Numbered from the stretch's first letter, positions 27,429 to 45,089 are shown. The stretch is 57,314 bases of DNA from Thermodesulfobacteriota bacterium (GCA_035655515.1 DASRUI010000016.1:1-57314); one strand, 5' to 3'. Made by a program: numbers and translations. The notes: a model not told the origin generated them from the sequence alone.

Positions 27429-29273
27429 TTAAGAAAGGAGAAAGAAGAGATTCAGGAGCACAAGAAGCCCTACGAAGACGGATACCGCGTAATCGTGCAC
27501 GAGCCCCGTCTGTATGCGGCGCAAAACCACCGACAACCCTGTCATGAGTTCAGCGGCGGCGTTCACGAGCCCGTCAACGACCTCGACGTCGAACTTGAAC
27601 GACATGCCGCAGAGCCGGTCGCTGAGTCTCAAAGCGAGAGTCTTGGCGGCGCTTACGAACCCGTCAACAATCTCTACGTCGAACTTGAACGACATGCCTG
27701 AGAGCCAATTGCCGAACTTCAAGACAAGGGTCTTGTAAGAGTTGCCGACCGCGTTGTCAACCGGCGCAATGACGTTTGTGTCCCACCACATGAAAATTAG
27801 CGCGCCCTTTCTGTAAAACCAGTCCGTGTCGAGGCTTACCACCGGCTTGGTGCCGAGTTTCTTTATGTACAGATAGAAACCGAGCCACGTAAAGAGCAGT
27901 ATCTCGAATGTCCACACGAGATGTTCCGCCGTGTAAGAGGCGTAATGAATCGGATAGGGGAGCATATCGTATAAAAACTTCGGATACAGCCCGATGAATA
28001 CGCACATAAAAGCGGCCATAGCCATGCCAATCAGCATATTCAACGGCGGGTCCTCGGTCTTGATTTTCTTGTCCTCGGCCATGAAGGCGAGATAAGGGAG
28101 TTTCAGGCCTACGGAAAGGAAAGTTCCTGAGGAAGCGAGCGTCAGAAACAACCACGCATAACTAAGATGCTCTTCGGCCGCCGCGCTCACGATTACGGAT
28201 TTGCTCACGAAGCCGCTGAAAAACGGCACGCTCGATATGGCAAATGCCCCGACCATGTAAAGGATAAACGTATAAGGCATGGTCTTGTATAGCCCGCCAA
28301 GTTCGGAGAGTTTTCTCTTTCCCGTCATATAGATGATGCTTCCCGCGCCCATAAAGAGAAGCCCCTTATAGAGTATATGGGCAAAGGCGTGGGCAACGGC
28401 CCCGTTTATCGCCATCTGAGTGCCGATGCCGACCGCAGCCACCATGTAGCCGACCTGGCTTATGATGTGATAGGAAAGCAGCCTTCTTATGTCGTTTTCC
28501 AGAACCGCATAAACAACGCCGTAAACCGCCATGATGACGCCGAGCACTATAAGAATGTCCGTCCCGGCGAAACCCCTCGCAAGGGCATATACCGCGCTCT
28601 TTGTCGTGAACGCCGACATGAAGACGGCGCCGCTTATCGTCGCCTCGGGATAGGCGTCCGGAAGCCATGCCCCGAGCGGAGGCACGGCGGCGTTAATGAT
28701 GAAAGCAATGAGTATGAGCGCGGCGCCGGGCCCCGCAAGTTCCATGGGGTTGAAGGCGAAGCTCTGAGTCTGCGCGTAATACATTACAGCCCCTCCTATG
28801 AGGCATACCCCGCCGAAGATATGCACCAATATATATCTGAACGCCGCCCCGTAAGCCGCGTCAGTCCTCCGGTAAAGTATCAGGAATACCGAAGAAAACG
28901 CCATGAACTCCCAGAATAAGACGAGCGTAAGAAAATCCCCTGCGAGCGCGACCCCGATGGCGCTCCCGGCGTAAACAAAACCGGCTATATGATGGCCGTC
29001 TTCTTTGAGATTCAGCCCGTAGCACATCGAAATAAAAGCCGTAAGCGAAAATATGTATGAAAACACGAGCGAGAGTTTGTCGACCCTGCCGAATATCAGT
29101 TCCTGCCCCATGATGTGATACGCCCCGTAGACACCCTCGCTCATGTTCAGAACGCTTAAAAACGCGAGCGCGGGCAATAAAAGCAGATACGCCTGCTTTA
29201 CCCTGCCTTTAAAAAACGGGATCAAAATGGAGCCTGCTATCAATACCGCCCCCGGGTGAACCCAATCAATCAT
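27429..29273 (-). CDS. Antiporter-like complex I/Mrp-family subunit bearing a NuoL/MrpA-type C-terminal lateral-helix arm (likely annotated NuoL or Na+/H+ antiporter subunit D)
   Basis: 614 aa. PF00361-type core (WEFMAFSSVFLI, GAWLPDAYPEATISGAVFMSAFTTKSAVYALAR). The ~135-aa C-terminal extension ends FDVEVVDGLVNAAAELMTGLSVVLRRIQTGLVHDYAVSVFVGLLVLL. The (I/V)DGxVN...QTG...Y + terminal TM pattern is the helix-HL/TM16 signature of NuoL. The start overlaps the upstream small ORF by 8 nt. Confidence 0.8.
   Translation of the reverse strand: MIDWVHPGAVLIAGSILIPFFKGRVKQAYLLLLPALAFLSVLNMSEGVYGAYHIMGQELIFGRVDKLSLVFSYIFSLTAFISMCYGLNLKEDGHHIAGFVYAGSAIGVALAGDFLTLVLFWEFMAFSSVFLILYRRTDAAYGAAFRYILVHIFGGVCLIGGAVMYYAQTQSFAFNPMELAGPGAALILIAFIINAAVPPLGAWLPDAYPEATISGAVFMSAFTTKSAVYALARGFAGTDILIVLGVIMAVYGVVYAVLENDIRRLLSYHIISQVGYMVAAVGIGTQMAINGAVAHAFAHILYKGLLFMGAGSIIYMTGKRKLSELGGLYKTMPYTFILYMVGAFAISSVPFFSGFVSKSVIVSAAAEEHLSYAWLFLTLASSGTFLSVGLKLPYLAFMAEDKKIKTEDPPLNMLIGMAMAAFMCVFIGLYPKFLYDMLPYPIHYASYTAEHLVWTFEILLFTWLGFYLYIKKLGTKPVVSLDTDWFYRKGALIFMWWDTNVIAPVDNAVGNSYKTLVLKFGNWLSGMSFKFDVEIVDGFVSAAKTLALRLSDRLCGMSFKFDVEVVDGLVNAAAELMTGLSVVLRRIQTGLVHDYAVSVFVGLLVLLNLFFLLS
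27555..27706. repeat. In-frame tandem direct repeat, period exactly 90 bp, inside the arm-coding region
   Basis: 27555-27616 (ggcggcgttcacgagcccgtcaacgacctcgacgtcgaacttgaacgacatgccgcagagcc) versus 27645-27706 (ggcggcgcttacgaacccgtcaacaatctctacgtcgaacttgaacgacatgcctgagagcc), with about 7 mismatches in 62. It encodes GMSFKFDVE(I/V)VDG(F/L)V(S/N)AA twice. Confidence 0.9.
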
Positions 29274-29508
29274 AATAGTCCTCGCTTTTCTGCAACCATA
29301 TTTTCCCTATAAATTTTGACACCACTATAATTGCAACGCACGAAATAAAGCCGTATGCGGCGCTGAAGCCCGGGATTTCGTCCCACGGGAATATCGCGTG
29401 ATGCTTCGGTATTATGAAATCACCGATTACCAAAAGCCCCATGGCAACGTAGACAACGGTCTTGAAAACCTTCTTGCCATGACCTTCGAGTATCTTTTCG
29501 AGTATCAT
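29266..29508 (-). CDS. 80-aa two-TM membrane protein, translationally coupled on both sides
   Basis: ATG 29508 overlaps the upstream stop (ATGA), and its 3' end overlaps the next start by 8 nt. Translation: MILEKILEGHGKKVFKTVVYVAMGLLVIGDFIIPKHHAIFPWDEIPGFSAAYGFISCVAIIVVSKFIGKIWLQKSEDYYD. No family recognised. Confidence 0.6.
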   Translation of the reverse strand: MILEKILEGHGKKVFKTVVYVAMGLLVIGDFIIPKHHAIFPWDEIPGFSAAYGFISCVAIIVVSKFIGKIWLQKSEDYYD

Positions 29509-30974
29509 TTTATCCTCTCTATGATGGACAGGAAAAAGTCGGGCCATACGCCTACTATGACCGTTATTACGGCGGTTATCATTATCGGCGCTATCACGAA
29601 AGGAGGCGCCTCCTTGACGTTACGCACGTGACTGTCTTCCGACGGTTCTTTGAAATACGCCCTGAAGATAATGGGGAGAAAGTAGGCCGCGTTAAGAACC
29701 GTGCTCGTAAGAAGCACCACAAGCGCCGTTCCGTTTCCGGCCTCGAGCGCGCCCTTCACGAGATACCACTTGCTCGTGAACCCGGCGACCGCCGGAACGC
29801 CTATCATGGAAAGAGCGCCTATGGTAAAGGCCGCCATGGTGTAAGGCATCTTTTTCGCTATGCCGTCCATCTGGCTTATCTTCTTTATGTGGGAGGCGAC
29901 GAATATGCTTCCGGCGCAGAAAAAGAGCGTTACCTTGGAAAACGCGTGATTCCCTATGTGAAGTATGCCTCCCAGAACGCCGCTCGGAGTAAGGAGCGCC
30001 ACTCCTAATATCACGTAAGAGAGCTGGCTTATGGTCGAGTAGGCGAGCCTCGCCTTAAGGTCGTCTTTCGTGAGGGCTATGACCGAGGCGGTTATTACCG
30101 TAAAAGACGCGAAGAGCGCGGTCGGAAGTCCGAGCCCGAAGTAACTCATGACGTCCAGCCCGAACACGAAGAGCATTATCCTCACCACCGAAAACACCCC
30201 TACCTTAACGACAGCGACCGCGTGCAAGAGAGCGCTGACGGGCGTGGGCGCGACCATGGCGGAAGGAAGCCAATTATGGAACGGCATCATGCCGGCCTTG
30301 GCTAAACCTATGAGGAAGAATATGTAGGTAAGGGTGACCAGTAGCCTCGGCATCTCGGTCGTGAATATGCCGCCCGGCTGAAAATCGAGGGTCCCGGTTA
30401 TCATGTAGGTCATGATTATCGCGGCAAGCAAAAACACCTTCGCGAGACCTACGAGATAGACGACGTACTTTTTGCCGCCCTCCCACGCGTCCTTGTCCTC
30501 GTGGTGCGCGACGAGCGGATAGGTCATTACGCTCAACAACTCGTAAAAGAGATACAGGGTAAAGAGATTCGCGGCGAACGCGACGCCTATGGCCGAAGAA
30601 AGGGCTATGGCGAAACAGGAAAAAAACCTCGTCTGGGAGTGCTCGTTAAGGGACCTCATGTAGCCTATGGAATAGGCCGTGGCTATAATCCAGAGGAAAG
30701 AGGCGCTCAAAGCGAAGAATATGCCCAAGGGGTCCACCCTGAACTTCAACTCTATCCCGGGTAAAACGGTAAATACCGTGTACTCGACGACCGCGCCGGA
30801 AAGTATCAACGGGAGCATGGATACTATCAACGCGAATTTTACCAAGGCCGCGGCAAAACTCCAGCCCTCTCTCAGGTTCGGGTATTTTCCGGACGCCACA
30901 ATCAAGGCGACCGATATGCCCGACACTAAAACGGCTAAAAGAGGCTTTATCGAAACTATGGTTTGAAATTCCAT
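29505..30974 (-). CDS. Antiporter-like subunit with a NuoL/MrpA-type core but no lateral-helix arm (likely annotated Na+/H+ antiporter subunit D / NADH dehydrogenase subunit)
   Basis: 489 aa. VDPLGIFFAL...YSIGYMRS...RFFSCFAIAL...LFYELLSVMTYPLV resembles the NuoL N-terminal region. HNWLPSAMVAPTPVSALLHAVAVVKVGVF resembles the NuoL/MrpA PTPVSAL(I/L)HA motif. The protein ends right after the 14-TM core. Confidence 0.75.
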   Translation of the reverse strand: MEFQTIVSIKPLLAVLVSGISVALIVASGKYPNLREGWSFAAALVKFALIVSMLPLILSGAVVEYTVFTVLPGIELKFRVDPLGIFFALSASFLWIIATAYSIGYMRSLNEHSQTRFFSCFAIALSSAIGVAFAANLFTLYLFYELLSVMTYPLVAHHEDKDAWEGGKKYVVYLVGLAKVFLLAAIIMTYMITGTLDFQPGGIFTTEMPRLLVTLTYIFFLIGLAKAGMMPFHNWLPSAMVAPTPVSALLHAVAVVKVGVFSVVRIMLFVFGLDVMSYFGLGLPTALFASFTVITASVIALTKDDLKARLAYSTISQLSYVILGVALLTPSGVLGGILHIGNHAFSKVTLFFCAGSIFVASHIKKISQMDGIAKKMPYTMAAFTIGALSMIGVPAVAGFTSKWYLVKGALEAGNGTALVVLLTSTVLNAAYFLPIIFRAYFKEPSEDSHVRNVKEAPPFVIAPIMITAVITVIVGVWPDFFLSIIERIK

Positions 30975-31040
30975 GCGCCCACCCTTATTCCGAGATTACC
31001 TCAAAGACCCGCTCAATGACAGTCATTGCGCGGAGATTTT

Positions 31041-31104
31041 GTAACTCAGCCCTCCGCCTGAGGCGGAAGGGCTGACGTGTATCAGGGCTAAAGCCCTGAG
31101 TTAC
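31041..31104. repeat. Nested-hairpin element, variant outer stem GTAACTCAG/CTGAGTTAC (copy 3)
   Basis: gtaactcagccctccgcctgaggcggaagggctgacgtgtatcagggctaaagccctgagttac, in the gap after nuoN. Confidence 0.65.
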
Positions 31105-31119
31105 GTAAACAAGAATACC

Positions 31120-32592
31120 TTAAAGTCCGAACGCCTTGCTTGAGGCCATACGGACGAATTCTATGACGTGGTTCGGATACACTCCCAAAGCCAATACCAT
31201 AACCATCGAGACAGCCAGGGCGTAAGACACTCCCTTGCTCGGGGCCGTCTCGTGAACGAAGGCCGGCTCTTTCATGTACATGAGCATGATTACCCTTATG
31301 TAAAAATACGCCGCTATCGCGCTCATGACCACCGCTGCCACGGCGAGACCTATCATGCCTTTATGGATTAGGGCCATGAAGACGTAGAACTTGCCCATGA
31401 ACCCGGCGGTAGGCGGAATGCCGGCCAGGGAAAACATGAATATCATCATGAGGAACGCCAGAAGCGGATGGGTCTTCGAGAGCCCCGCGTAATCCTCGAT
31501 TGTTTCCCCCTGCCTGCCTTCTTTTCTCAGGATAATCACTATCGCGAACGCGCCGAGGGTCATGAACACGTAAACGAGGGAATAGAACATGACGCTTCCG
31601 GCGCCCTCGCCGGTTCCCGCAAGCACGCCCAAAAGCGCGTAGCCGGCGTGGCCTATGCTCGAATAGGCGAGCATCCTTTTAATGTTCGACTGCGCTATCG
31701 CGGTTATGTTTCCGTAGAACATGCTCGCGACGCTCACGACCGCGATAAGCACGAACCACTTATCGTAGGCCGGGCCGAGCCCTTCCATGAAAACCCTTAT
31801 CATGGCGGAAAACGCGGCGGCCTTGCTCGCGACCGATATGAAACCCGTAATCGGCGTCGGCGCTCCCTCGTATGCGTCCGGCGCCCACATGTGAAACGGC
31901 ACTCCGGCCACCTTGAAGGCGAAACCGCACGCCAGCAAAACCAGCGCTATGCTGAGCGAGGGGTTCTTTAAAACCTCGGGCGTAAGGGCGGAGGCGACGG
32001 CGTGGAGTTCGGTGGTTCCCGTAAGCCCGTAGATGAAGGAAATCCCGTAAAGCAGTATCCCCGAAGAGAACGCGCCGAGTATCACGTATTTCATCGCGCC
32101 CTCGCTCGAGCGCGAATCGTTATGAGCGAAGCCGGCGAGAACGTAAACCGGTATGCTCATGAGCTCCAGACCTATGTATATGGAAAGGAGATCCGCCCCC
32201 GACGCCATGACCATCATGCCGCTTAACGAAAAAAGCATGAGGACGTAGTATTCGCCGGAGTTCGCGTCGTCGTCTTTCATGTACCGGAAAGAAATAAGTA
32301 TCGTAAGGACGGCCGCGAAGTAAAAAACGAACTTAAAGAACGTCGAGTAGTCGTCCGCGACGAACATCCCTGAAAAGAACGTGCCGCCGGAAATATCGGA
32401 CGCGAAAATGCAGGCCGAGCCGACGGCCGCGGCGACTACCAGCAAAAACGCGAGAGTAGCCGTAACAATCCGCCTCTTTTCGCCCAAGAGGAGGTCGAGC
32501 AAAAGAAGCACGCTCGCCCCTCCCGCCACCGCAATCTCCGGGCTTATCGCGAGTACGTCTTTTATGCCTATTACGCCGACGCCTGTCATCAT
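31120..32592 (-). CDS. nuoN: NADH-quinone oxidoreductase subunit N
   Basis: 490 aa. LLSIYIGLELMSIPVYVLAGF, PFHMWAPDAYEGAPTPITGFISVASKAAAF and MLAYSSIGHAGY motifs, in the position after nuoM. Confidence 0.9.
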   Translation of the reverse strand: MMTGVGVIGIKDVLAISPEIAVAGGASVLLLLDLLLGEKRRIVTATLAFLLVVAAAVGSACIFASDISGGTFFSGMFVADDYSTFFKFVFYFAAVLTILISFRYMKDDDANSGEYYVLMLFSLSGMMVMASGADLLSIYIGLELMSIPVYVLAGFAHNDSRSSEGAMKYVILGAFSSGILLYGISFIYGLTGTTELHAVASALTPEVLKNPSLSIALVLLACGFAFKVAGVPFHMWAPDAYEGAPTPITGFISVASKAAAFSAMIRVFMEGLGPAYDKWFVLIAVVSVASMFYGNITAIAQSNIKRMLAYSSIGHAGYALLGVLAGTGEGAGSVMFYSLVYVFMTLGAFAIVIILRKEGRQGETIEDYAGLSKTHPLLAFLMMIFMFSLAGIPPTAGFMGKFYVFMALIHKGMIGLAVAAVVMSAIAAYFYIRVIMLMYMKEPAFVHETAPSKGVSYALAVSMVMVLALGVYPNHVIEFVRMASSKAFGL

Positions 32593-32598
32593 GTCTCC

Positions 32599-34137
32599 TT
32601 AAAAACCCGCCACGGGCGCGCCCGTTACCTGCGCCAGCAAGTTGGCGACCGATACGTGCATCACGTTGAGAAAACTCATGGGCCTAAAACCAACCCAGAA
32701 TACGAACACCAGAAACGCGACGAGAGCCGCGGCCTCCCTCAGGTTTATGTCGCGGACATCGCCGTGGCCGTGCGTCTCCCCATGGCCGGATTCATCGCCA
32801 TGCTCCGCGTGCGATTGCCCGAAACTTACCCTCTGATACATGGAAAGCATGTAAGCCGCGCCGAGCGCTATGCCCGCGAAAAGGAAGAACAAATAAAACT
32901 TATAGCTCGCGTACGCACCCGCGAGTATCAGAAATTCTCCGATAAATCCGTTAGTGCCCGGAAATCCCAGAGACGCCAGAGAGAATATCAACAAAAACAC
33001 CGCGTAAATCGGGATGCGCCTTGCCGCCCATCCGTAGTCTTTGAGGTTTCTCGTGTGCGTCCTCTCGTATATCAACCCGACGCAGAGGAACAGCGCCCCT
33101 GTCGTTATGCCGTGGTTGAACATCTGAAGCATGCCGCCCTCGACCCCGTTCTTGTTAAGAAGAAATAACCCCATGGTGATGAAGCCCATGTGGCTTATGC
33201 TCGAATAGGCGATGAGTTTTTTCATGTCCTCCTGCGAAAGAGCGAGGAACGCCCCGTATATTATGGCTATTATGGAAAGGATTGCAACGGGGGTTGTGAA
33301 ATAAATGCTCGCGTCGGGGAACATGGGGAACAAAAACCTCAGGAATCCGTACGCGCCCATCTTCAGAAGCACTCCGGCGAGCATGATGCTTCCGGCGGTC
33401 GGAGCCTCGACGTGCGCGTCGGGCAGCCAAGTGTGGAACGGAAACATGGGAACCTTTATGGCGAAGGCGATGAAGAGCAAAATAAACACGAACGCCTGAA
33501 AGCCGAAGGCGTATTGCTTTGTCATGAGAAGCGGTATGTCGAACGTCCCTCCGGAGGTGAAATAAAGGGCTACGATGCCGACAAGCATGAATTTGCCTCC
33601 GACCCATGTGTAAAGGAAGAACTTGATCGCCGCGTATATCCTCCTCGGGCCGCCCCAAATCCCGATTATGAGACACATCGGTATGAGCATGGCCTCCCAG
33701 AATATGTAGAAGAGGAAGAAGTCGAGCGAGGCAAAAACCCCCATCATGGCCGCCTGCATCAAGAGGAGCATTATCATGAACTGTCTTACGCGCTTCTCTA
33801 TCGACGTCCACGAGGCCAAAACGCATATCCACCCGATGAGGCCGGTAAGGAACATGAATATCACGCTTATACCGTCCACTCCGAGGTAGTACTCGATATT
33901 AAGGCTCGGTATCCACTCGCCTCTTTCAACGAACTGCATTGCGGCGGTTCCCCTGTCGAAGCGCAAGAGAAGAGGTATGGTAAGGATAAAGTCCGCCACC
34001 ATAGCAACGAGCGTTATCCAGCGCGAGGCCGAAGCATTTTTCACGAAAAGAAGCGCGACCACGGCAAGAAGCGGCAGGAATATTATGACGCTCAAGATAT
34101 GGTCTTGAATCATAGGCAGATCGAGAAGAAACTCCAT
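32599..34137 (-). CDS. nuoM: NADH-quinone oxidoreductase subunit M, downstream tandem copy (His-rich loop variant)
   Basis: 512 aa. FYIFWEAMLIPM, PFHTWLPDAHVEAPTAGSIMLAGVLLKMGAYGFLRF and LIAYSSISHMGF motifs. About 9 in 10 residues are identical to the upstream copy by eye. Confidence 0.92.
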   Translation of the reverse strand: MEFLLDLPMIQDHILSVIIFLPLLAVVALLFVKNASASRWITLVAMVADFILTIPLLLRFDRGTAAMQFVERGEWIPSLNIEYYLGVDGISVIFMFLTGLIGWICVLASWTSIEKRVRQFMIMLLLMQAAMMGVFASLDFFLFYIFWEAMLIPMCLIIGIWGGPRRIYAAIKFFLYTWVGGKFMLVGIVALYFTSGGTFDIPLLMTKQYAFGFQAFVFILLFIAFAIKVPMFPFHTWLPDAHVEAPTAGSIMLAGVLLKMGAYGFLRFLFPMFPDASIYFTTPVAILSIIAIIYGAFLALSQEDMKKLIAYSSISHMGFITMGLFLLNKNGVEGGMLQMFNHGITTGALFLCVGLIYERTHTRNLKDYGWAARRIPIYAVFLLIFSLASLGFPGTNGFIGEFLILAGAYASYKFYLFFLFAGIALGAAYMLSMYQRVSFGQSHAEHGDESGHGETHGHGDVRDINLREAAALVAFLVFVFWVGFRPMSFLNVMHVSVANLLAQVTGAPVAGF

Positions 34138-34177
34138 GCCTTAAATCCCCCTGACCTCTTTGTGAAAGATAGTAACC

Positions 34178-35704
34178 TTAAAAGCCCGCCACGGGCGCGC
34201 CCGTTACCTGCTCCAGAAGATTGGCGACCGATACGCGCATCACGTCAAGAAAACTTGCGGGCCACAAACCAACCCAGAATACGAACACCGTAAACGCGAC
34301 GAGAGCCGCGGCTTCCCTCAGGTTTATGTCGCAGACGCAGCCCCGCCCCGCGCCGTCGCCGGGCTCCGCTTGAGCCGTGTCGAAGCTGAAGCATACCCTC
34401 TGATACATGGAAAGCATGTAAGCCGTGCCGAGCGCTATGCCCGCAAGAAGGAATAACAAATAAAACTTATAGCTCGCGTACGCGCCTACGAATATCAGGA
34501 ATTCTCCGATAAATCCGTTAGTGCCCGGGAATCCCAGAGACGCCAGAGAGAAGATAAAGAGAAATCCCGCGTAAGCAGGCATGAGCCTTCCCACCCATCC
34601 GTAGTCTTTGAGATTTCTCGTGTGCGTCCTCTCGTATATCAACCCGACGCAGAGGAACAGCGCCCCTGTCGTTATGCCGTGGTTGAACATCTGAAGTATG
34701 CCGCCCTCGACCCCGTTCTTGTTGAAAAGAAATAACCCCAAGGTGATGAAGCCCATGTGGCTCACGCTCGAATAGGCGATGAGTTTTTTCATGTCCTCCT
34801 GCGAAAGAGCGAGGAACGCCCCGTATATTATGGCTATTATGGAAAGGATTATGACGGGGGTGGCGAAATAAATGCTCGCGTCGGGGAACATGGGGAGCGA
34901 AAACCTCAGAAATCCGTACGCGCCCATCTTCAGAAGCACTCCGGCGAGTATGATGCTTCCGGCGGTCGGAGCCTCAACGTGCGCGTCCGGCAACCAAGTG
35001 TGGAACGGAAACATGGGAACCTTTATGGCGAAGGCGATGAAGAACAAAATAAACACGAACGCCTGAAAGCCGAAGGCGTATTGCTTTGTCATGAGAAGCG
35101 GTATGTCGAACGTCCCTCCGGAGGCGAAATAGAGGGCGATGATGCCGACGAGCATGAGTATGCTTCCGGCAAGCGTGTAGAGGAAGAACTTAATCGCCGC
35201 GTAAACCCTCCTCGGCCCGCCCCAAACCCCGATTATGAGATACATCGGTATGAGCATGGCCTCCCAGAATATGTAGAAGAGGAAGAAGTCGAGCGAGGCG
35301 AAAACCCCCATCATGGCGGCCTGTATAACGAGGAGCGTTATCATGAACTCTTTTACGCGCTTATCAACTGACGTCCACGAGGCCAAAACGCATATCCACC
35401 CGATGAGGCCGGTAAGGAACATGAAGAGAACGCTTATACCGTCTATTCCGAGGTAGTACTCGATATTAAGGCTCGGTATCCATTCGCCTCTTTCGACGAA
35501 CTGCATTGCGGCGGTTCCCTTGTCGAAACGCAAGAGAAGGGGTATGGTAAGGATAAAGTCCGCGACAAGCGCCGCGAGCGTTATCCAGCGCGAGGCCGAG
35601 TCGTTTCTCACGAAAAGAAGCAGGGCGACGGCCAGAAGCGGCAGGAATATTATGACGCTCAGGATATGGCCTTTAATAATAGGCAAATCGAGAAGAAACT
35701 CCAT
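34178..35704 (-). CDS. nuoM: NADH-quinone oxidoreductase subunit M, upstream tandem copy
   Basis: True start is ATG 35704 (MEFLLDLPIIKGH...), 2 nt after the nuoK stop. The 605-aa track ORF is an out-of-frame read-through across nuoK. It has the same NuoM motifs as the other copy. Confidence 0.92.
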   Translation of the reverse strand: MEFLLDLPIIKGHILSVIIFLPLLAVALLLFVRNDSASRWITLAALVADFILTIPLLLRFDKGTAAMQFVERGEWIPSLNIEYYLGIDGISVLFMFLTGLIGWICVLASWTSVDKRVKEFMITLLVIQAAMMGVFASLDFFLFYIFWEAMLIPMYLIIGVWGGPRRVYAAIKFFLYTLAGSILMLVGIIALYFASGGTFDIPLLMTKQYAFGFQAFVFILFFIAFAIKVPMFPFHTWLPDAHVEAPTAGSIILAGVLLKMGAYGFLRFSLPMFPDASIYFATPVIILSIIAIIYGAFLALSQEDMKKLIAYSSVSHMGFITLGLFLFNKNGVEGGILQMFNHGITTGALFLCVGLIYERTHTRNLKDYGWVGRLMPAYAGFLFIFSLASLGFPGTNGFIGEFLIFVGAYASYKFYLLFLLAGIALGTAYMLSMYQRVCFSFDTAQAEPGDGAGRGCVCDINLREAAALVAFTVFVFWVGLWPASFLDVMRVSVANLLEQVTGAPVAGF

Positions 35705-35706
35705 GC

Positions 35707-36009
35707 TTACCCTTTCAAAGAATCCATTTCGTCGGCATTGAAGACGTTGCGTTGCCTCATGAGCGCTATCAATATGCCCAGGGCAACGGCGACCTCGGCC
35801 GCGGCTACGGTTATGGTGAAAACCGCGAACATCTGCCCCCTCATGTCGCCGAGATAGTACGAAAACGCCACGAGGTTTATGTTCACCGAGTTGAGCATCA
35901 GCTCGACGCTCATGAGCATTATTATTATATTCTTCCTGAGCAGCACCCCGGACGCCCCTATGACAAAAAGCGCGAGCCCGAGCGCCATATACCACGTAAC
36001 TGGAATCAT
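35707..36009 (-). CDS. nuoK: NADH-quinone oxidoreductase subunit K
   Basis: 100 aa, 3 [28 protein letters not shown]...[11 protein letters not shown]. Confidence 0.93.
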
Positions 36010-36013
36010 AACC

Positions 36014-36508
36014 TCAGTTCCACCTCTTTTTCGCCATGACTATCGCGCCGACCATCGCGGCCAGCAAAAGCACCGAAACAACCTCGAACGGAAGAAGATA
36101 ATCGGTAAAAAGGGCCTTGCCGAACTCTTTGACCGAGGTCTCGGCGGAGGTCGGGGGCAACATGTCTTTAAAGGCGCTGCCCCATATTACGATAAAAAAC
36201 TCGATGGCGACGAGCGGGCTCACCACGTAGGCGAACCACCTGTTAAGCCGCGGGAAGACCTCAAGCGCCGCTTTTTCCATGTCCAACACCAAAACGACGA
36301 AGAGGAAAAGCACCATGACCGCGCCGACGTATATGAAAAGTTGCGCCGCCGCGAGGAAAGGCGCGCGGAGAAGCACGAATATGCACGCCACCTGAAAAAA
36401 CGTCACCATGAGCGCGAGGGCGCCGTGCACCGGGTTTTTCAGGCTTATCACCGCCAGCGCCGCGACTACCGCGGTAACCGCGAACATTATAAAGAATAAT
36501 TTTTCCAT
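36014..36508 (-). CDS. nuoJ: NADH-quinone oxidoreductase subunit J
   Basis: True start is ATG 36508 ([33 protein letters not shown]...[13 protein letters not shown]). The upstream 41 codons of the track ORF translate an intergenic repeat. Confidence 0.9.
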
Positions 36509-36521
36509 ATATCCCGCAATT

Positions 36522-36600
36522 CCCGCTTCCCGTTGCAATGCTTTACCGGGGTACCCATGCGAAGCATGGGTCGTGGAGCCCGGCCCCTTTGAAAAAGAGG
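36522..36600. repeat. Mosaic hairpin-module repeat in the nuoI-nuoJ gap
   Basis: The 17-mer cgcttcccgttgcaatg (36524-36540) is identical to 45001-45017. The 26-mer ggggtacccatgcgaagcatgggtcg (36548-36573) is identical to 49069-49094. The element ends with cccctttgaaaaag. Confidence 0.8.
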
Positions 36601-36609
36601 AAAACGAAA

Positions 36610-37197
36610 CTACTTCGCCTTTAACCACCAATCGGGCTTTTGTTCTTCAAAATACGGCACTATGACCGGCACGCCTTTAATCTTATCCCTGCCGAGCCGC
36701 GCCTTCACGATGACGCCTCCCTTGAAATACTCCGGGGTGCGCTGAGGCACGAGCAGTTCTTCCTTCGTGAAAAACGTGCAACTTTTGTCGGAGCAGGCAA
36801 GCTCGAAGTCCCTGCCGAGCCGGACGGCCGTCGTCGGGCAGGCGTCCTCGCAGTATCCGCAGAAAAGGCACCTTACGAGGTTTACCGTCCAGACCGCCGC
36901 TACCCTGTCGGATATGCCTCTTCCGTTCTTGTCCTCGACCGGCACCACCGTTATGCAGTTGGTCGGGCAGGCCTTGACGCAAAGTTCGCACGCGACACAG
37001 AGTTCCTTGCCTCTCTCGTCCCTGTTCAACGTGTGCCTGCCTCTAAACCTCCTGTACGGCACCCACTTCTCCTCGTCCGGATAGCGAAGCGTTACGCTCC
37101 TCGACACGTTATGCCGGAAGGTAGTGGAAAGCCCCTTCAGAAAATCCAAGAAGAATATCCTCTTTATCAAATCCGCTATGCCGAAAGGTTTTTTCAT
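36610..37197 (-). CDS. nuoI: NADH-quinone oxidoreductase subunit I
   Basis: ATG 37197 overlaps the nuoH stop (ATGA). Two 4Fe-4S motifs, CVACELCVKACP and CLFCGYCEDACP. A ~35-aa C-terminal extension is present. Confidence 0.93.
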   Translation of the reverse strand: MKKPFGIADLIKRIFFLDFLKGLSTTFRHNVSRSVTLRYPDEEKWVPYRRFRGRHTLNRDERGKELCVACELCVKACPTNCITVVPVEDKNGRGISDRVAAVWTVNLVRCLFCGYCEDACPTTAVRLGRDFELACSDKSCTFFTKEELLVPQRTPEYFKGGVIVKARLGRDKIKGVPVIVPYFEEQKPDWWLKAK

Positions 37198-38231
37198 GGC
37201 ACCCATATCTTTAAGAATCCGGTAACGAGAATGTTCGCCATCGAGACCGGTATCAATATCTTCCACCCTATGTTCATGAGCTGGTCATAGCGGTAGCGCG
37301 GTATGGTAAACCTTATCCACATGAAAAAGTAGATTAACACCGCCACCTTGCCCATGAGCCAGAATATCCCCGGCAAAATCCCCGTGCCGAACGGGTCGTC
37401 CCAGCCGCCGAGGAAAAGAATGGTCGTAAGCGCCGCGATGGAGGTCATGGCGATGTACTCGGCCATGGCGAAGAACGAAAACCTCATGCCGCTGTATTCG
37501 GTGTGGAACCCCGCCCCGAGAGTGCCCTCGTCCTCGGGAAGGTCGAACGGAATCCTGTTCATCTCGGCCATCCCGGCTATCACGAATATCACGAACCAAA
37601 CAGGCCCGACCGGAAGGTAAAACACGTTCCAATGGAATACCCCTCCGTATTGGCTCCTTACGATGTCCAATAGGGAGAGGGAGCCTGATATCATCACGAC
37701 CCCTATCACCGCGAACGTGAGGGACACCTCGTAACTGATCATCTGGGCCGCGGAACGAAGCCCTCCGAGAAGGGCGTACTTGCTGTTCGATGCCCACCCT
37801 CCTAACATCAATCCGTAAACCGAAAGGCCGGAAACCGCGAGCACGTATAAAATCCCCATGTTCATGTCTGAGATGTAGAGGGTTATCTCTTTATCCACGT
37901 AGGGAAGATTAACGGATTCCCCGAACGGCATCGCGACGAATATCAAGAACATCGGCACAAGCGCTATGAGGGGCGCGATCTTAAAAAGAAACTTATCGGC
38001 CTTTTCCGGAACGATGTCCTCCTTGAGGAGCATCTTTATTCCGTCGGCGACGGGCTGGAGTATGCCGTGCGGGCCGACCCTGAAGGGCCCGAGCCTCGAC
38101 TGTATGTGCCCTGCCACCTTCCTCTCTATCCACGTAAGAGGTATGGGAAGGTTAAAGAGCACTCCGGCCACTATCATCACCTTTACGATGATTATGACGA
38201 CCTCTGTCAATACCGCCGTATCCATTGTCAT
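37194..38231 (-). CDS. nuoH: NADH-quinone oxidoreductase subunit H
   Basis: IERKVAGHIQSRLGPFRVGPHGILQPVADGIKMLLKED...EGTLGAGFHTEYSGMRF. Confidence 0.95.
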   Translation of the reverse strand: MTMDTAVLTEVVIIIVKVMIVAGVLFNLPIPLTWIERKVAGHIQSRLGPFRVGPHGILQPVADGIKMLLKEDIVPEKADKFLFKIAPLIALVPMFLIFVAMPFGESVNLPYVDKEITLYISDMNMGILYVLAVSGLSVYGLMLGGWASNSKYALLGGLRSAAQMISYEVSLTFAVIGVVMISGSLSLLDIVRSQYGGVFHWNVFYLPVGPVWFVIFVIAGMAEMNRIPFDLPEDEGTLGAGFHTEYSGMRFSFFAMAEYIAMTSIAALTTILFLGGWDDPFGTGILPGIFWLMGKVAVLIYFFMWIRFTIPRYRYDQLMNIGWKILIPVSMANILVTGFLKIWVP

Positions 38232-38238: not shown

Positions 38239-38709
38239 TTATCTCTTTCTTCCCCACATGTAGTTTATCATCTCCATGTAGCGCGTGTTCATGCCGCGCA
38301 CTATGGAATGCACGGTAAAAACGACGTTCCGCATGAGCTTATACACTATCCACGGGTGGGTTTCCACCACCCTCTCGAAGTCTTTCCTCTCAAGAACCAA
38401 AACCTCTATGTCGGAGACCGCGACGACGGTGGCGGAACGCGGCCTTCCGTCGAGAAAACTCATCTCTCCGAATATCTCCCCCTCTTTCATGAGGGTCAAC
38501 GTGAATAGTTCCCCGTCGGGAGAGACCTTGCAGGCCTTTACCTCGCCTTTTTTAAGCACGTAAAGCGATTCTCCGTCCTCGCTCTCTGAAAATATAGTCT
38601 CGCCGCGCTTGTACTCTTTCTTTCCGAGCATCTTCGCGACCACCTCGCGCTCTTTATCGTTAAGCTCGGTGAAGAAAGGGATGTTCCCGAGTATTTTCGG
38701 ATCTACCAT
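38239..38709 (-). CDS. Stand-alone cyclic-nucleotide-binding (CAP-family cNMP) domain protein, no HTH
   Basis: 156 aa. FFTELNDKEREVVAKML, ESLYVLKKGEV, and the phosphate-binding cassette FGEMSFLDGRPRSATVVA. A short helical tail follows and there is no DNA-binding domain. AAGGAGG RBS. It starts 34 nt after nuoG and ends 7 nt before nuoH. Confidence 0.85.
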   Translation of the reverse strand: MVDPKILGNIPFFTELNDKEREVVAKMLGKKEYKRGETIFSESEDGESLYVLKKGEVKACKVSPDGELFTLTLMKEGEIFGEMSFLDGRPRSATVVAVSDIEVLVLERKDFERVVETHPWIVYKLMRNVVFTVHSIVRGMNTRYMEMINYMWGRKR

Positions 38710-38743: not shown

Positions 38744-41239
38744 TCATTCCTTGAAACCCGCTATGTTGACGACCGGTATAGGTTCGCCTTTTCTGAAAAA
38801 TCTGTTCACCGGAGCGTCATTGAAATTCTCCGGTATGAAACAAACGTCTTTCATGGAATTCGCCTTGACCCGCAACGCGAACTTGGCGCTGAATCCGTTT
38901 CCGCTCACAATGACCTTGTCTCCGTCCGAAAGGCCGGCCTCGTCGGCCCTGAGTTTGCTTATCTCGACAACAGGCTCCTTAAGAAGCCCGCTGAGTATGG
39001 ACGACCTGCTTGAAAGTCTGCCTGAATAATAAAGGTGATTTCCCGTAACGAGAATATAAGAGTTGACCTTGTCGGTCTTGAACGGAACGCCCGGCTCCGG
39101 TTTATCCCCCGCGCCGGAAAGCCTTTTATCCGAAGCCTTTACCATGACGCCCTTGGCGCCGCCCGCCGATATCTCCGCTCCGGCGTAAGACGAGACTTGT
39201 TTTTTTATCTCCTCGAAAACCGAAGCGCTCGAACCGACGGTCATCGAAGCCGCGGCATCGAGAAGAGAGGCTATTATGTCGAAATCCGTCTTAACATCGC
39301 CCGGGGGCTTGACAAGCGGATAAACCGCCTGAATACGTCCTTCCTGATTCGTCACGGTGCCGCTTCTTTCGACGAACACGGCCGAAGGCAATATAAGATG
39401 CGCCAACTTCGCGGTCTCCGTCATGAAACTCGCCTGCACCGCCAAAAACTTGACCTTTGAAAGGGCGCCCCCGGCAAAGGCCTCGTCCGGGTACATCGCC
39501 GCTATGTCCTCTCCGACGACGTACATAGCGTCCATCTCTCCCGATGCCGCTTTCTCCAACATCTCCCCGCACGACATCCCCCGCGACACGGCTTCGTAGC
39601 CGGGGCCGAAAACCGGACTTACTCCCATGTCCCAGGCGCCCCTCTGGTTAGACCTGTCGAGAAGCGGCAATACCCTGATTTTCTTGCCCATCGCCTTGAG
39701 TGAAGCGATAAGAAGCCCTAACGCGAAAGAGCCTTCCTTATATCTTAGAAAGTCCGTGCCGGCCATGATGCTTATCGTCTCGGCTCTTTTGAAACGCTCT
39801 ATAAGGGCGTTTACGTCCGGGGCTTCGGCGCCGCATGTCTGCAAGAGTTCTTCGATCGAAGCGGCATTTATTGCCTCCATGCCCTTTACGGCGCTCAACT
39901 TGGCGGAATTGTCCTTATTAAGCAAAGAGACCGCCGCGAGGAGAAGGCTTCCGACACGTCCCGGAAGATGCCTTATCCTCAAATGCGCCGAGGAATCCAG
40001 CTTCATGGAGCGCGGAGACGCTATGACCACGGCCTTCCTCGCGCTCGCCGAAACATACCTTACTATGTAATCGGTAACCGGATTTTCATCCGATATCTGG
40101 GAGCCGACTATGAAAGTCATGTCCGAGTCCATGCACTCGTAAACGGCGGAAGGGCCTTCGGCCATGCCCGTGGCCGATATGAACGAGGCGACGGCCGAGG
40201 CGTCCCACCTTGAAGAAGAATCCACGTTAGGCGTCTTTACGACTTGCCTCATAAGCTTCTGAAAAAGGTAGAGTTCCTCGTTCGTAAGACGCGCCGAGGC
40301 GACGCCTCCGACCTTTTCCGGGGCCGGCCTCATGAGGGCTTCCTTAAGAACCTCTATCGCCCTCGCCCACGATATCGGCTCGAACCTGACGCCGACCTTC
40401 AAAAGAGGCGTTGTGAGCCTGTCGGCGTTGTTGCTTATGTCGTAACCGAACCTGCCTCTCGCGCAAAGCATGTTCGCGTTGAATCCGTTGGAATTGCGCG
40501 CTATGGAGCGCACCACCTCTCCGTTACGGGACTCGACGGTTATCCTGCAACCGGTCGCGCAATAAGGGCAGACCGTGGCGGAACTTTTCAAATCCCACGG
40601 CCTTGCCTTGTACCTGTAAGGCCGCCTCATAAAGCACCCTACAGGGCAAACCTCTATGCACATGCCGCAGTGGTCGCAGTCGAGTTCGGTCTTCCAAAAG
40701 CTCGTCTCCTCCTGATGCGCGCCCCTGCCCATGACACCCAGAACTCCCCTTCCGACAATCTCCCTGCAGACCCGGACGCACCTCGTGCACTGGACGCAGC
40801 GGTTGGAGTTCTTCACTATGACCGGACTTAAAACGTAATCTTCCTCGTGGAAGCGTATCTTGACCTCGTCGAATCTTCCGTTCCTCGGCCCGTGCTTGTA
40901 AACCATGTCCTGCAACTCGCACTCGCCGGCCTTGTCGCAGACCGGGCAATCGAGGGCGTGGTTCGAAAGGAGAAACTCAAGCATCGCCGCTCTCATAGAC
41001 GAAATCGAGCTTGACTCGGTAAGTATGCTCACGCCGGGTATTACCGGGGTTATGCACGCGGGTTGGAGCTTTTTCTGCCCCTCTATCTCTATAAGACACA
41101 TCCTGCAGCTTCCGAGTCCGGATATCCGAGCCTGATAGCAGAAGGTCGGGATGTCGAATCCGGCTTCTTTGGCCGCGTCCAGAATAAGCGTGCCGTCATT
41201 CACGGTTATCTCTTTATTGTTTATCTTTAAAGTTATCAT
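38744..41239 (-). CDS. nuoG: NADH-quinone oxidoreductase subunit G
   Basis: 831 aa. An N-terminal 2Fe-2S ferredoxin-like part (CYQARISGLGSCRMCLIE), HALDCPVCDKAGEC, 4Fe-4S motifs, then a molybdopterin-oxidoreductase-like domain. Confidence 0.93.
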   Translation of the reverse strand: MITLKINNKEITVNDGTLILDAAKEAGFDIPTFCYQARISGLGSCRMCLIEIEGQKKLQPACITPVIPGVSILTESSSISSMRAAMLEFLLSNHALDCPVCDKAGECELQDMVYKHGPRNGRFDEVKIRFHEEDYVLSPVIVKNSNRCVQCTRCVRVCREIVGRGVLGVMGRGAHQEETSFWKTELDCDHCGMCIEVCPVGCFMRRPYRYKARPWDLKSSATVCPYCATGCRITVESRNGEVVRSIARNSNGFNANMLCARGRFGYDISNNADRLTTPLLKVGVRFEPISWARAIEVLKEALMRPAPEKVGGVASARLTNEELYLFQKLMRQVVKTPNVDSSSRWDASAVASFISATGMAEGPSAVYECMDSDMTFIVGSQISDENPVTDYIVRYVSASARKAVVIASPRSMKLDSSAHLRIRHLPGRVGSLLLAAVSLLNKDNSAKLSAVKGMEAINAASIEELLQTCGAEAPDVNALIERFKRAETISIMAGTDFLRYKEGSFALGLLIASLKAMGKKIRVLPLLDRSNQRGAWDMGVSPVFGPGYEAVSRGMSCGEMLEKAASGEMDAMYVVGEDIAAMYPDEAFAGGALSKVKFLAVQASFMTETAKLAHLILPSAVFVERSGTVTNQEGRIQAVYPLVKPPGDVKTDFDIIASLLDAAASMTVGSSASVFEEIKKQVSSYAGAEISAGGAKGVMVKASDKRLSGAGDKPEPGVPFKTDKVNSYILVTGNHLYYSGRLSSRSSILSGLLKEPVVEISKLRADEAGLSDGDKVIVSGNGFSAKFALRVKANSMKDVCFIPENFNDAPVNRFFRKGEPIPVVNIAGFKE

Positions 41240-41276
41240 CTGCCGATTCCCTTTACCTTTACCCTTTTGTCTTTAC

Positions 41277-41370
41277 CTCCTCTCCCCGACGGGGAGAGGA
41301 TTGAGGTGAGGGGTCTTTAATTTTCTTTTCCTATAACCCCTAAGTCCCCCCTCGCCCCAAAGGGGAGAGG
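41277..41370. repeat. Two CCTCTCCCC/GGGGAGAGG-type hairpin units in the nuoF-nuoG gap
   Basis: cctcctctccccgacggggagaggattgaggtgaggggtc and cccctcgccccaaaggggagagg. Confidence 0.6.
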
Positions 41371-41423
41371 AAGAAAAAGATAAAACCATTGCTTCTTCTT
41401 TACCCTTTACCTCTACCCTGTCC

Positions 41424-42680
41424 TTACACCATGCACTTCTTATTTTCTACGTGATACACGAACTCTTCCCTGAAATTTTTAAGCGCGCCGCGAAGGGCCA
41501 TCACGGCGCCGTCAGACAAGGGACAGAACGTCCTTCCGAATATATTTCCGCAGAGGTCTTCCAAAAGCTCCACGTCTCCCTGCCTTCCGGTGCCGGACTC
41601 GAGACGCCTTAATATCTTGGTCATCCACGTCGTGCCTTCCCTGCATGGAGTGCATTTGCCGCAGGACTCGTGGCTGAAAAAGCGGTTTATTATGTAAGCG
41701 GTCTTGACCATGCAAGTCGTTTCGTCCATGACTATGACCCCTCCGCTTCCGAGCATGGTGCCTTTTTGCGCGAGGGAGTCGAAATCCATGGGCGTATCCA
41801 GATCCTTCTCGATAAGAAGCGGCGCGCTCACGCCTCCGGGTATTACCGCCTTGAATTTTCTTCCGTGCCTTACGCCTCCCGCGTGATCATAGATTATCTC
41901 GCGCAAAGGCGTGCCCATCGGAAGCTCAAAGATGCCCGGCTTATTCACGTGCCCGCTTACGCAGTAGAGTTTCGGGCCCGGGCTTTTTTCGGGCCCTATG
42001 GTTTTAAACCAGTTCGCGCCCTTGGATATTATGAAAGGCACGCAGGCCAATGTCTCGACGTTATTTATGACGGTCGGCTTTGCGTAAAGGCCGCTTAAAG
42101 CGGGGAACGGCGGCTTTTTCCTCGGCTGGCCCCTTAATCCCTCTATGGACTCGAGCAACGCGGTTTCCTCGCCGCAGATGTAGGCTCCGAAACCCCTGTG
42201 CACGTGCATATCGAGCGAAAAGCCGCTCCCGAAGATATTTTTACCGAGGTATCCCTTGCCATAGGCCTCAAGAATCGCCTGTTCGAGAATCTTCGCGCTC
42301 CGCGCGAACTCTCCCCTTATGTATATGTAAGCCGTGCCGGCGCCTATTGCGTAGCTCGTTATTATCATGCCCTCGATGAGAAGGTGCGGGTCGTTCTCCA
42401 TTATGACCCTGTCCTTGAACGTGCCGGGCTCGCCCTCGTCGGCGTTACAGCAGAGGTATTTGGCGAGGGTGGGATCCTTTGGTATGAAACTCCACTTAAG
42501 GCCCGTCGAAAAACCGGCTCCTCCCCTGCCCCTTAAGCCGGAATCCTTGATACGCTGGATAAGTTCGTCGGGAGTCATCTTGAACGCGTCCGCGACGGCC
42601 TTGTAACCGCCTCCTGCGAGATACGCGCCTATGGTGAGGGAGTCGGGCTTACCCACGTTTTTAAGAAGAGTCTTTTCCAT
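41424..42680 (-). CDS. nuoF: NADH-quinone oxidoreductase subunit F
   Basis: GLRGRGGAGFSTGLKW (FMN site), CNADEGEPGTFKDR and ESCGKCTPCREG (N3 cluster). Confidence 0.95.
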   Translation of the reverse strand: MEKTLLKNVGKPDSLTIGAYLAGGGYKAVADAFKMTPDELIQRIKDSGLRGRGGAGFSTGLKWSFIPKDPTLAKYLCCNADEGEPGTFKDRVIMENDPHLLIEGMIITSYAIGAGTAYIYIRGEFARSAKILEQAILEAYGKGYLGKNIFGSGFSLDMHVHRGFGAYICGEETALLESIEGLRGQPRKKPPFPALSGLYAKPTVINNVETLACVPFIISKGANWFKTIGPEKSPGPKLYCVSGHVNKPGIFELPMGTPLREIIYDHAGGVRHGRKFKAVIPGGVSAPLLIEKDLDTPMDFDSLAQKGTMLGSGGVIVMDETTCMVKTAYIINRFFSHESCGKCTPCREGTTWMTKILRRLESGTGRQGDVELLEDLCGNIFGRTFCPLSDGAVMALRGALKNFREEFVYHVENKKCMV

Positions 42681-42684
42681 CAGC

Positions 42685-43152
42685 CTACTTAAGACCTCTC
42701 AGTATGCCCGTTACTTTTTCTTCGGTGAGGCCTTCGTAATAATCGTCGTTTATCTGCATAATCGGAGCCGTGCCGCAACTTCCGAGGCACTCGACGAGCG
42801 ATAACGTCACCTTGCCGTCCTTTGTGGTCTGCCCCGTCTTTATGCCGAGCGTCTTTTCCATGTGACGCACGAGATGCTCGGCGCCGAGAAGCGAGCACGA
42901 AAGATTTCTGCAGACCTGCACGTGGTTCCTGCCGACCGGCTTCTCGACGTTATACATCGTGTAAAAAGCCCCGACCTCCTCGACCTCCACCGGCTCCATC
43001 TCGAGGAGCTTTGCCACGTCCGCCATGTCGTCCTTCGACAGAAAACCCTTCTCCCGCTGGACGGACTGCATCGCGGCCATACAGGCGGACTTTTTCGAGT
43101 GGTATCTCGCCTGAATCTTTTTTATCTCTTCGATCATTTTTTCGCTCAGCAT
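42685..43152 (-). CDS. nuoE: NADH-quinone oxidoreductase subunit E
   Basis: VQVCRNLSCSLLGAE...VECLGSCGTAPIMQIN 2Fe-2S motif. Confidence 0.93.
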   Translation of the reverse strand: MLSEKMIEEIKKIQARYHSKKSACMAAMQSVQREKGFLSKDDMADVAKLLEMEPVEVEEVGAFYTMYNVEKPVGRNHVQVCRNLSCSLLGAEHLVRHMEKTLGIKTGQTTKDGKVTLSLVECLGSCGTAPIMQINDDYYEGLTEEKVTGILRGLK

Positions 43153-43218
43153 AATTGCCTTATTCCATTTGGATTACAGATAAAAATCAATAACCGTCAT
43201 TCGTCATTGTTTGTTTTC

Positions 43219-43272
43219 GTAGGGCAGACCTTTAGGTCTGCATCTTTACGCAAGGCTAAAGCCTTGCCCTAC
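43219..43272. repeat. GTAGGGCA...TGCCCTAC nested-hairpin element, copy 4
   Basis: gtagggcagacctttaggtctgcatctttacgcaaggctaaagccttgccctac, in the nuoD-nuoE gap. Confidence 0.7.
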
Positions 43273-43287
43273 GTAAAAATAACCGCC

Positions 43288-44472: not shown

Positions 44473-44487
44473 TGGAATAAGCCGGCC

Positions 44488-44991: not shown

Positions 44992-45000
44992 GAATCCCCT

Positions 45001-45080: not shown

Positions 45081-45089
45081 GAACCCTGA

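Follow-up and report, generated by a model that had tools for sequence, protein, structure and literature searches.

Three described variants of complex I bear on the locus analyzed here. The 2M complex I of Nitrospira and other lineages (Chadwick et al. 2018, ISME J 12:2668), as later papers recount it (PMC9040806, PMC7419157), has a second NuoM and an insertion of ~26 amino acids (aa) in the lateral helix (HL). In the green complex I of rhizobia (Degli Esposti & Martinez-Romero 2016, FEMS Microbiol Ecol 92:fiw084), as outlined in PMC9040806, two MrpD-like proteins replace NuoL; within the literature searched, the term green complex I appears in no other paper. Complex_I_3 of Candidatus Manganitrophaceae has two MrpD-like proteins, two NuoM proteins, NuoN, and a 26-aa HL insertion in MrpD2 (Yu, Chadwick, Lingappa & Leadbetter 2022, mBio 13:e03421-21; PMC9040806). 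This complex has been proposed to move 5–6 ions, up to 6, and to run in reverse, and its design was called unique to Manganitrophaceae (PMC9040806). Here we describe a complex I locus with five antiporter-like genes in a 57,314-nucleotide (nt) stretch of DNA (the window) from a Thermodesulfobacteriota bacterium (GCA_035655515.1 DASRUI010000016.1:1-57314), where these genes occupy positions 27,429 to 35,704. We consider it likely that NuoL has been replaced in this operon by a three-gene cassette of Mrp ancestry, and that a doubled nuoM and a lengthened HL accompany the cassette to give a membrane arm of five modules in a single complex I.

The operon is a single array of genes on the minus strand that runs from 46041 to 27429, with nuoA first. 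The order is nuoA-B-C-D-E-F-G, a gene for a cyclic nucleotide monophosphate (cNMP)-binding protein, nuoH-I-J-K, nuoM1, nuoM2, nuoN, an intergenic gap, and the cassette genes that we label T1, t2, and T3; ispE starts 14 nt beyond T3. A previous reading of this DNA from sequence only had reported that nuoK is followed after 2 nt by nuoM, a second nuoM, and nuoN, that an overlapping trio lies behind nuoN, and that a canonical nuoL is absent between nuoK and nuoM. Open reading frames (ORFs) and family models bear out each of these points. The nuoK ORF occupies 35707-36009, and the ATG of nuoM1 (34178-35704, 508 aa; TIGR01972, 621 bits) lies 2 nt past its stop codon. The nuoM2 gene (32599-34137, 512 aa; TIGR01972, 612 bits) is a recent paralogue of nuoM1 and precedes nuoN (31120-32592, 490 aa; TIGR01770, 486 bits). 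The three remaining genes are T1 (29505-30974, 489 aa), t2 (29266-29508), and T3 (27429-29273, 614 aa), all likewise on the minus strand; T1 overlaps t2 by 4 nt and t2 overlaps T3 by 8 nt, and t2 is translationally coupled to both neighbors. PF00361 matches all five large proteins (NuoM1, NuoM2, NuoN, T1, and T3) with E values of 1e-41 to 1e-80, and no other antiporter-like (PF00361) gene is present within the 57-kb window. We also considered a 605-aa ORF at 34178-35995, which uses a GTG start inside nuoK, as a full-length NuoL overlapping nuoK. This candidate was rejected: Nuo proteins show no resemblance to its first 97 residues, a C-terminal arm is missing, and NuoM models align from the internal ATG at 35704.

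Placement with hidden Markov models, which the earlier reading had proposed as a check, put the five large proteins above the cut-offs of NuoM, NuoM, NuoN, NF006236, and NF009310, respectively. T1, the 'MrpD1' of green complex I, carries PF00662 and PF00361 and scores 735 bits with NF006236 ('antiporter subunit D'; cut-off, 663). It has a NuoL/MrpA-N-type core without an arm; the protein ends after transmembrane helix (TM) 14, and NuoL models cover profile positions 5-467 of 615 only. Its nearest solved chains by sequence are MbhH, NdhF, and NuoL. T3, the 'MrpD2' of that complex, scores 717 bits with NF009310 (also 'antiporter subunit D'; cut-off, 564) and only 144.6 and 133.9 bits with the NuoL models NF005141 (cut-off, 556) and TIGR01974 (cut-off, 407.5). 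Both T1 and T3 fall far below the NCBIfam cut-offs for NuoL. The nearest PDB chains to T3 by sequence are MbsH' (6u8y_X, E = 5.7e-35) and MrpA/MrpD.

T3 has an MrpD-type core followed by TM15, the HL, and TM16. An AlphaFold2 model of the protein (predicted local distance difference test score, 88; predicted template modeling score, 0.80) places TM15 at residues 449-468, the HL at 485-554 plus 561-588, and TM16 at 592-613. The HL comprises 104 modeled residues, and the best Foldseek matches to the model are full-length MrpA, NuoL, ND5, and NdhF. This model, together with the end of T1 after TM14, upholds the earlier statement that T3 alone bears a NuoL-type arm. T3 would be the functional stand-in for NuoL.

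A T3 profile was used to scan one genome per GTDB species, which yielded 80 loci, and the ORFs of each locus were typed against the window proteins. In approximately 50 nuo operons, T1-t2-T3 lies directly between nuoK and nuoM (order K-T1-t2-T3-M-N), and nuoL is absent. The hosts include rhizobial plasmids, Rhodobacterales, Aromatoleum, and Photobacterium/Moritella, as well as Acidobacteriota, Desulfobacterota, Nitrospirota, Verrucomicrobia, and Planctomycetota. On a Phyllobacterium plasmid, for example, the Prokaryotic Genome Annotation Pipeline lists nuoJ, nuoK, 'monovalent cation/H+ antiporter subunit D family protein', a hypothetical protein, 'Na(+)/H(+) antiporter subunit D', nuoM, nuoN, and nuoA. 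The cassette moves as one block: Desulfocapsa/Desulfobulbus (L062 and L063) have it between nuoM and nuoN (K-M-[trio]-N), and the clade of the window (L083, L088, L005, and L004) has it behind nuoN (K-M(-M)-N-[trio]-ispE). The proposal that the trio belongs to complex I gains support on two counts, as the same trio fills the nuoL slot in these approximately 50 operons and begins 7 nt (L083) or 42 nt (L005) past nuoN in sister loci of the window. That the arm-bearing gene comes last, which the earlier reading had also emphasized, is correct for gene order but does not hold as a structural statement, because the order is a permutation specific to this clade.

The middle gene of the cassette, t2, encodes a two-TM protein of 80 aa from its conserved start, or of 93 aa from an upstream ATG, that matched no Pfam or NCBIfam family. 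Of 85 T1-T3 pairs, 62 have an ORF of at least 55 aa in the space that separates the two genes, which in most pairs measures ~240 nt. Most of the intervening ORFs align as a conserved two-TM protein of ~82 aa with a C-terminal EDYYD, and the full motif reads H..W(D/E)..IPG(F/W)..YGF.SC..II..SK..GH...EDYYD. A search of 1.8 billion representatives returned 554 cluster representatives at E ≤ 1e-3. The t2 proteins constitute a conserved, unnamed family that is present also in archaeal stand-alone clusters.

Such stand-alone clusters (L007, L058, L064, L066, L068, L073, and L078) encode, in this order, a D-like protein, T1, t2, and a T3 homologue (T3') and carry no nuo genes. L073 is from an ANME-2 archaeon (Candidatus Methanocomedens) and L058 is from a Methanobacteriota archaeon. 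The stand-alone T3' proteins lack the HL motif and end in a hydrophilic linker and one TM. In L078, the sole stand-alone cluster scanned, MnhE and MnhB genes are located upstream. The stand-alone clusters are probably the source of the cassette.

The length of the T3 arm follows the number of nuoM genes. We measured the T3 tail from a conserved DxDWxYR anchor to the C terminus and counted nuoM in those loci where both nuoK/J and nuoN were visible. A single FDxxxxDGxVN unit is found in tails of 100-112 aa, and exactly one nuoM is present in all 48 of 48 such loci, whereas two nuoM genes are present in 11 of the 12 loci with tails of at least 125 aa. Two units, tails of 128-141 aa, and two nuoM genes are found together in the window and in L001, L083, L084, L085, L061, L088, L089, L090, and L091. 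The spacer between TM15 and TM16 measures ~75 aa in Escherichia coli NuoL, 93 aa in short T3 proteins, and 123 aa in long ones. Although the 2×2 table of arm length and nuoM number gives a Fisher p of 3.5e-11, the loci are related by phylogeny, and the weight of the association therefore rests on the number of independent transitions.

Comparison of sequences separates at least three independent origins of the long arm together with a second nuoM. The HL insert is 30 aa long in the clade of the window, 25 aa in L001/L084/L089/L090, and ~26 aa in Manganitrophaceae-like loci, and the insert sequences differ. The pattern of best hits among NuoM proteins also differs among the groups with two nuoM genes. 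A neighbor-joining tree of T3 cores places the loci with two nuoM genes in separate clades; the window, L083, and L003 fall within a clade whose other members (L004 and L005) are short-armed, and L005 has one nuoM. The pairing of nuoM copies with discrete HL increments of 25-30 residues amounts to a natural experiment, which supports the view that the HL acts as a length-matched clamp.

Both additions can be traced within the window. Tandem Repeats Finder reports a repeat in T3 at 27555-27735 with a period of 90, 2.0 copies, 79% matches, and no indels. Alignment of the units delimits a tandem duplication of a 30-codon HL unit at 27519..27698 on the minus strand, corresponding to residues 526-555 and 556-585 (GMSFKFDVE(I/V)VDG...), where short-arm relatives have a single unit. 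The two nuoM genes share 85% protein identity and 90% DNA identity. Their synonymous divergence (dS) is 0.20 and their nonsynonymous divergence (dN) is 0.074, and the dN/dS of 0.37 indicates that both copies are under purifying selection. Along the gene, the lowest dS is 0.04 (codons 301-360) and the highest is 0.35 (codons 421-480), a spread that hints at some gene conversion between the two adjacent genes. Both duplications are young, and the window shows the transition soon after it began.

The charged residues of the proton path are intact in four of the five modules. NuoM1 conserves E148, K228, K259, and E401, and the same four key charged positions are intact in NuoM2. E143, K227, and K401 are conserved in NuoN, and T1 has E145, K226, H251 plus K257, and K402, where the His-plus-Lys pattern in TM8 is typical of MrpA-N. 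NuoM1, NuoM2, NuoN, and T1 have the full set (Glu in TM5, Lys in TM7, Lys/His in TM8, and Lys/Glu in TM12). T3 keeps three of the four.

The 145-nt gap between nuoN and T1 (30975-31119) is filled with repeats, as the earlier reading had noted. It contains a nested-hairpin element at 31041-31106, whose core is CAGCCCTTCCGCCTCAGGCGGAGGGCTG, and a second hairpin at 31009-31033, and the predicted RNA fold of the gap has a free energy of -62.9 kcal/mol (z = -5.3). A second copy of the ~65-nt element lies on the plus strand at about 12424-12490, for a total of two copies in the window, and the two copies differ in their outer stems by compensatory changes (GTAACTCAG/CTGAGTTAC vs GTAGGGCAG/...TGCCCTAC). 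A T-run is absent from the element, and a scan for promoters and terminators found no site resembling either within the gap; across the region as a whole, such sites are approximately as numerous as expected from shuffled sequence. An Rfam scan of 26-47 kb found nothing in the gap and returned only a tRNA and a sub-threshold SorX match. The element looks like an insertion of the repetitive extragenic palindrome (REP) type and not like an operon boundary, and the trio would be cotranscribed with nuoN across it.

We propose that the operon derives from the green base design of four antiporter-like subunits (T1, T3, M, and N) by two matched additions in the clade of the window, namely the tandem duplication of nuoM and the 30-residue duplication in the HL of T3. 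Thirty helical residues at 1.5 Å each would extend the HL by ~45 Å, or roughly the width of one subunit. The five modules would assemble jointly into an arm composed of N, M, M', T3, and T1, with T3 beside NuoM and its lateral helix extending over M', M, and N. The short-form HL has ~74 residues (104 - 30) and a length of ~110 Å, which is near that of canonical NuoL in the E. coli and Thermus thermophilus structures. A short arm of near-canonical length would reach T3, M, and N and not a fourth subunit, and T1 would therefore be located beyond T3, on the distal side and not under the clamp. The most parsimonious order is N-M-(M')-T3-T1, in which T1 is perhaps held by t2. An order of N-M-T1-T3, with TM16 anchored one subunit earlier, is also conceivable.

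Canonical complex I translocates 4 H+ per 2e-, and further modules raise the proton cost per NADH. With menaquinone (ΔE of ~0.25 V), the translocation of 4 H+ is already close to equilibrium when the proton motive force (pmf) is 150-180 mV, and with ubiquinone (~0.41 V) the ceiling is ~5 H+. Given these limits, the forward reaction of an enzyme moving 5-6 H+ would require a low pmf or a quinone of high potential; alternatively, such an enzyme would more easily support pmf-driven electron flow from quinol to NAD+. The stoichiometry in the window would rise from 4 to 5-6 H+ per 2e-. This would favor pmf-driven reverse electron flow to NAD+, or would confine the forward reaction to either of those two conditions. 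As in the literature, the raised H+/e- ratio and the reverse electron flow are inferences.

Several observations weigh against a joint assembly of five pumping modules. One concerns T3, in which Asn194 occupies the TM7 lysine position between E122 and the residues K225 and K358. We observed this substitution in an alignment with E. coli NuoL, NuoM, and NuoN, and pairwise HMMER comparisons to MbsH', MrpA, and MrpD confirmed it; the TM7 lysine is present in all of these other proteins. Asn194 is kept in at least 90% of 86 aligned T3 family members, in which a neighboring conserved His has given way to Gly or Ala. In the absence of this lysine, it is doubtful whether T3 is a full pump, and the enzyme may accordingly move either 6 or 5 H+ per 2e-. 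T3 may instead be a structural clamp, such that all five subunits assemble but the proton path of T3 is impaired or altered and the gain is one proton (5 H+ per 2e-) rather than two. However, the TM5 Glu is present in all five proteins, and Glu122, Lys225 (TM8), Lys303, and Lys358 (TM12) are invariant across the 86 T3 family members, with the two His residues of the TM10/11 His-His-Lys motif conserved in at least 90%. These retained charged residues argue for a working central proton axis, and we rate the clamp explanation as somewhat unlikely. The pairing of arm and nuoM number is also imperfect: L039 (L039/L051, Nitrospirota) has a two-unit arm and one nuoM within 7 kb, and L086 (protein P0070, 649 aa) has three HL units and a 169-aa tail with two nuoM genes in view. 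Moreover, HL insertions have been reported in complexes without an extra subunit (PMC9040806).

The L039 and literature cases would fit a scheme in which NuoM1 and NuoM2 are alternative isoforms, one per complex, so that four modules are present as in ordinary green complex I. The two copies are of recent origin, and dS drops to 0.04 within codons 301-360, as expected if gene conversion were still under way; both points are likewise compatible with exchangeable isoforms. Isoforms are nevertheless improbable, as the second nuoM is accompanied by the 30-residue HL duplication in a clade whose short-armed sister L005 has one nuoM, this pairing recurs in at least three independent lineages, and both proteins keep the four key charged residues under constraint. 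Other points touch the trio itself. The structured 145-nt gap that precedes T1 could tune the expression of the trio or uncouple it in part, and a canonical nuoL may lie elsewhere in the genome, outside the window examined here. Together with the 'antiporter subunit D' names of T1 and T3 and the homologous trios that stand alone beside an extra D-like subunit, the gap might also recommend T1-t2-T3 as a separate Mrp-type cation/proton antiporter that merely adjoins the nuo operon. We rejected this and find it very unlikely: the trio is flanked by nuoN and ispE with no MnhB/E/F/G (MrpB/E/F/G) genes, it fills the nuoL slot in approximately 50 operons that have no other nuoL, its arm length follows nuoM number, and the FDxxxxDGxVN motif, present in two copies in the T3 of the window, is absent from stand-alone T3 homologues.

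The preferred reading remains a single complex I with a five-module arm. In its fullest form, an NADH-linked complex would truly be assembled from five modules, with the armless T1 outside the HL clamp, the armed T3 working without a TM7 lysine, and ~6 H+ moved per 2e-. We regard this combination as possible rather than probable. If it is true, the coupling geometry would be unlike that of any solved structure, and ~6 H+ would imply reverse electron flow or an unusually low pmf in a groundwater bacterium that does not oxidize manganese.

The remaining genes of the operon supply the other modules of the enzyme. The nuoA gene (45631..46041) is the first operon gene, located upstream of nuoB, and its homologues in related loci are typed as NuoA. 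The nuoB to nuoG genes (38744..45614) encode the Q- and N-modules, and the NADH-oxidizing module is thus present; all NCBIfam scores are above cut-off (NuoB, 227 bits; NuoC, 157; NuoD, 563; NuoE, 174; NuoF, 637; NuoG, 480). The nuoH to nuoK genes (35707..38231) match the NCBIfam models of NuoH, NuoI, NuoJ, and NuoK. Between nuoG and nuoH lies the gene for a 156-aa protein (38239..38709) with weak matches to CRP/cNMP domains, and its orthologues at the equivalent position in L001, L083, L084, L089, and L090 carry PF00027. The protein consists of a cNMP-binding domain only, and its site between nuoG and nuoH is kept throughout this green-type clade, L005 and L033 included. It could serve complex I as a regulatory or accessory subunit. 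All of these genes are on the minus strand.

Outside the operon, a tRNA gene (26466-26537, minus strand; Rfam, 63 bits) lies immediately downstream of ispE. A membrane pyrophosphatase gene (21927-23948, minus strand), located ~3.5 kb downstream of the operon, scores 1033 bits with the sodium-translocating model NF001961 (cut-off, 926) and is syntenic in L001, L083, and L089. A 314-aa ORF at 9235-10179 (minus strand) has a weak, partial match (E = 3.6e-11) to a Cas9d model, in which residues 134-287 align with profile positions 433-596, and may encode a stand-alone nuclease-domain protein. Near the right end of the window, a NirB-type nitrite reductase large subunit is encoded at 52419-54797 on the plus strand (TIGR02374, 917 bits).

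Among solved structures, the MrpA/MrpD pair of Mrp and the MbsH'/MbsH pair of MBS (PDB 6z16, 7qru, 7d3u, and 6u8y) are close counterparts, and the fold of T3 matches MrpA over the core, HL, and TM16. In Mrp, however, the arm is carried by MrpA-N, which is NuoL-like, whereas in the window the NuoL-like T1 is armless and the MrpD-like T3 is armed. The window also lacks MrpB/E/F/G genes, and its trio is embedded in a nuo operon. In Mrp, MrpA-N is distal and MrpD is proximal (PMC7419157). The proposed order N-M-(M')-T3-T1 would mirror this arrangement apart from the arm, which now sits on the MrpD-like protein.

With 2M complex I, as the later papers recount it, the window shares a second NuoM and an HL insertion, a combination that is convergent in several lineages. 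Two nuoM genes with more than 600 bits each to TIGR01972 and an HL insertion of approximately one subunit width are indeed present, but the arm of that 2M complex is on a canonical NuoL and the complex has four antiporter-like subunits, whereas the window has five and its arm is on the MrpD-like T3, which is not a canonical NuoL. The suggestion in the sequence-only reading that the locus further elaborates the 2M type, with up to two extra pumping modules, is supported by the covariation of arm length with nuoM number; the architecture itself had already been published (PMC9040806).

The absence of a canonical nuoL and the presence of two MrpD-like genes in the nuo operon place the window with green complex I as that variant is outlined. 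A tblastn search with T3 found 112 plasmid records, mostly rhizobial, 98 of which cover at least 80% of T3, and identity is 52-53% over 97% of the protein in the best rhizobial records. The Phyllobacterium locus has the equivalent three genes between nuoK and nuoM. The rhizobial form differs in having one NuoM, a 104-aa tail, and the order J-K-T1-t2-T3-M-N-A-B, whereas the window has two NuoM proteins and a long arm. The loci collected here show the green base form to be far more widespread than 'certain rhizobia'. Its small subunit t2, the armless distal T1, and a T3 without the TM7 lysine are features of all green-type enzymes that we flag here.

The closest match in architecture is Complex_I_3. 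The window likewise has two MrpD-like proteins replacing NuoL, two NuoM proteins, NuoN, and an HL insertion, T3 is 55-57% identical to the Manganitrophaceae proteins, and the consequence proposed for the two enzymes, 5-6 H+ and reverse electron transport, is shared. However, the two NuoM proteins of the window are mutual closest relatives (85%) that group with the single NuoM of L005, whereas in the Manganitrophaceae type the second NuoM shares only ~33% identity with other NuoM proteins. The insert in the window is a 30-aa tandem duplication of different sequence rather than 26 aa, and the cassette lies behind nuoN rather than in the nuoL slot. The window has nuoE and nuoF, which are absent from the clusters of the Manganitrophaceae-like L085 and L091, and its host belongs to a groundwater 'Deltaproteobacteria' clade of metagenome-assembled genomes rather than to Nitrospirota. 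In L085 and L091, which are also five-module loci, nuoH was likewise not seen in the cluster, and L085 carries ATP-synthase genes (atpI-like, a, and c) between nuoK and T1.

NuoM paralogy, the T3-core tree, and the insert all speak against common descent with the Manganitrophaceae cluster. By these comparisons, the window belongs to the published architectural class but has a separate, NADH-linked origin. Additional five-module examples outside Manganitrophaceae are L001, L083, L084, L088, L089, and L090, and the uniqueness of the design to that family does not hold. The five-pump design had been tied to the energetic problem of Mn(II) lithoautotrophy, and it now also occurs in unrelated groundwater bacteria. 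Since the design was rebuilt independently in the clade of the window, and is present also in at least one further lineage (L001/L084/L089/L090), Complex_I_3 and the operon described here represent a recurrent evolutionary solution rather than a one-off.

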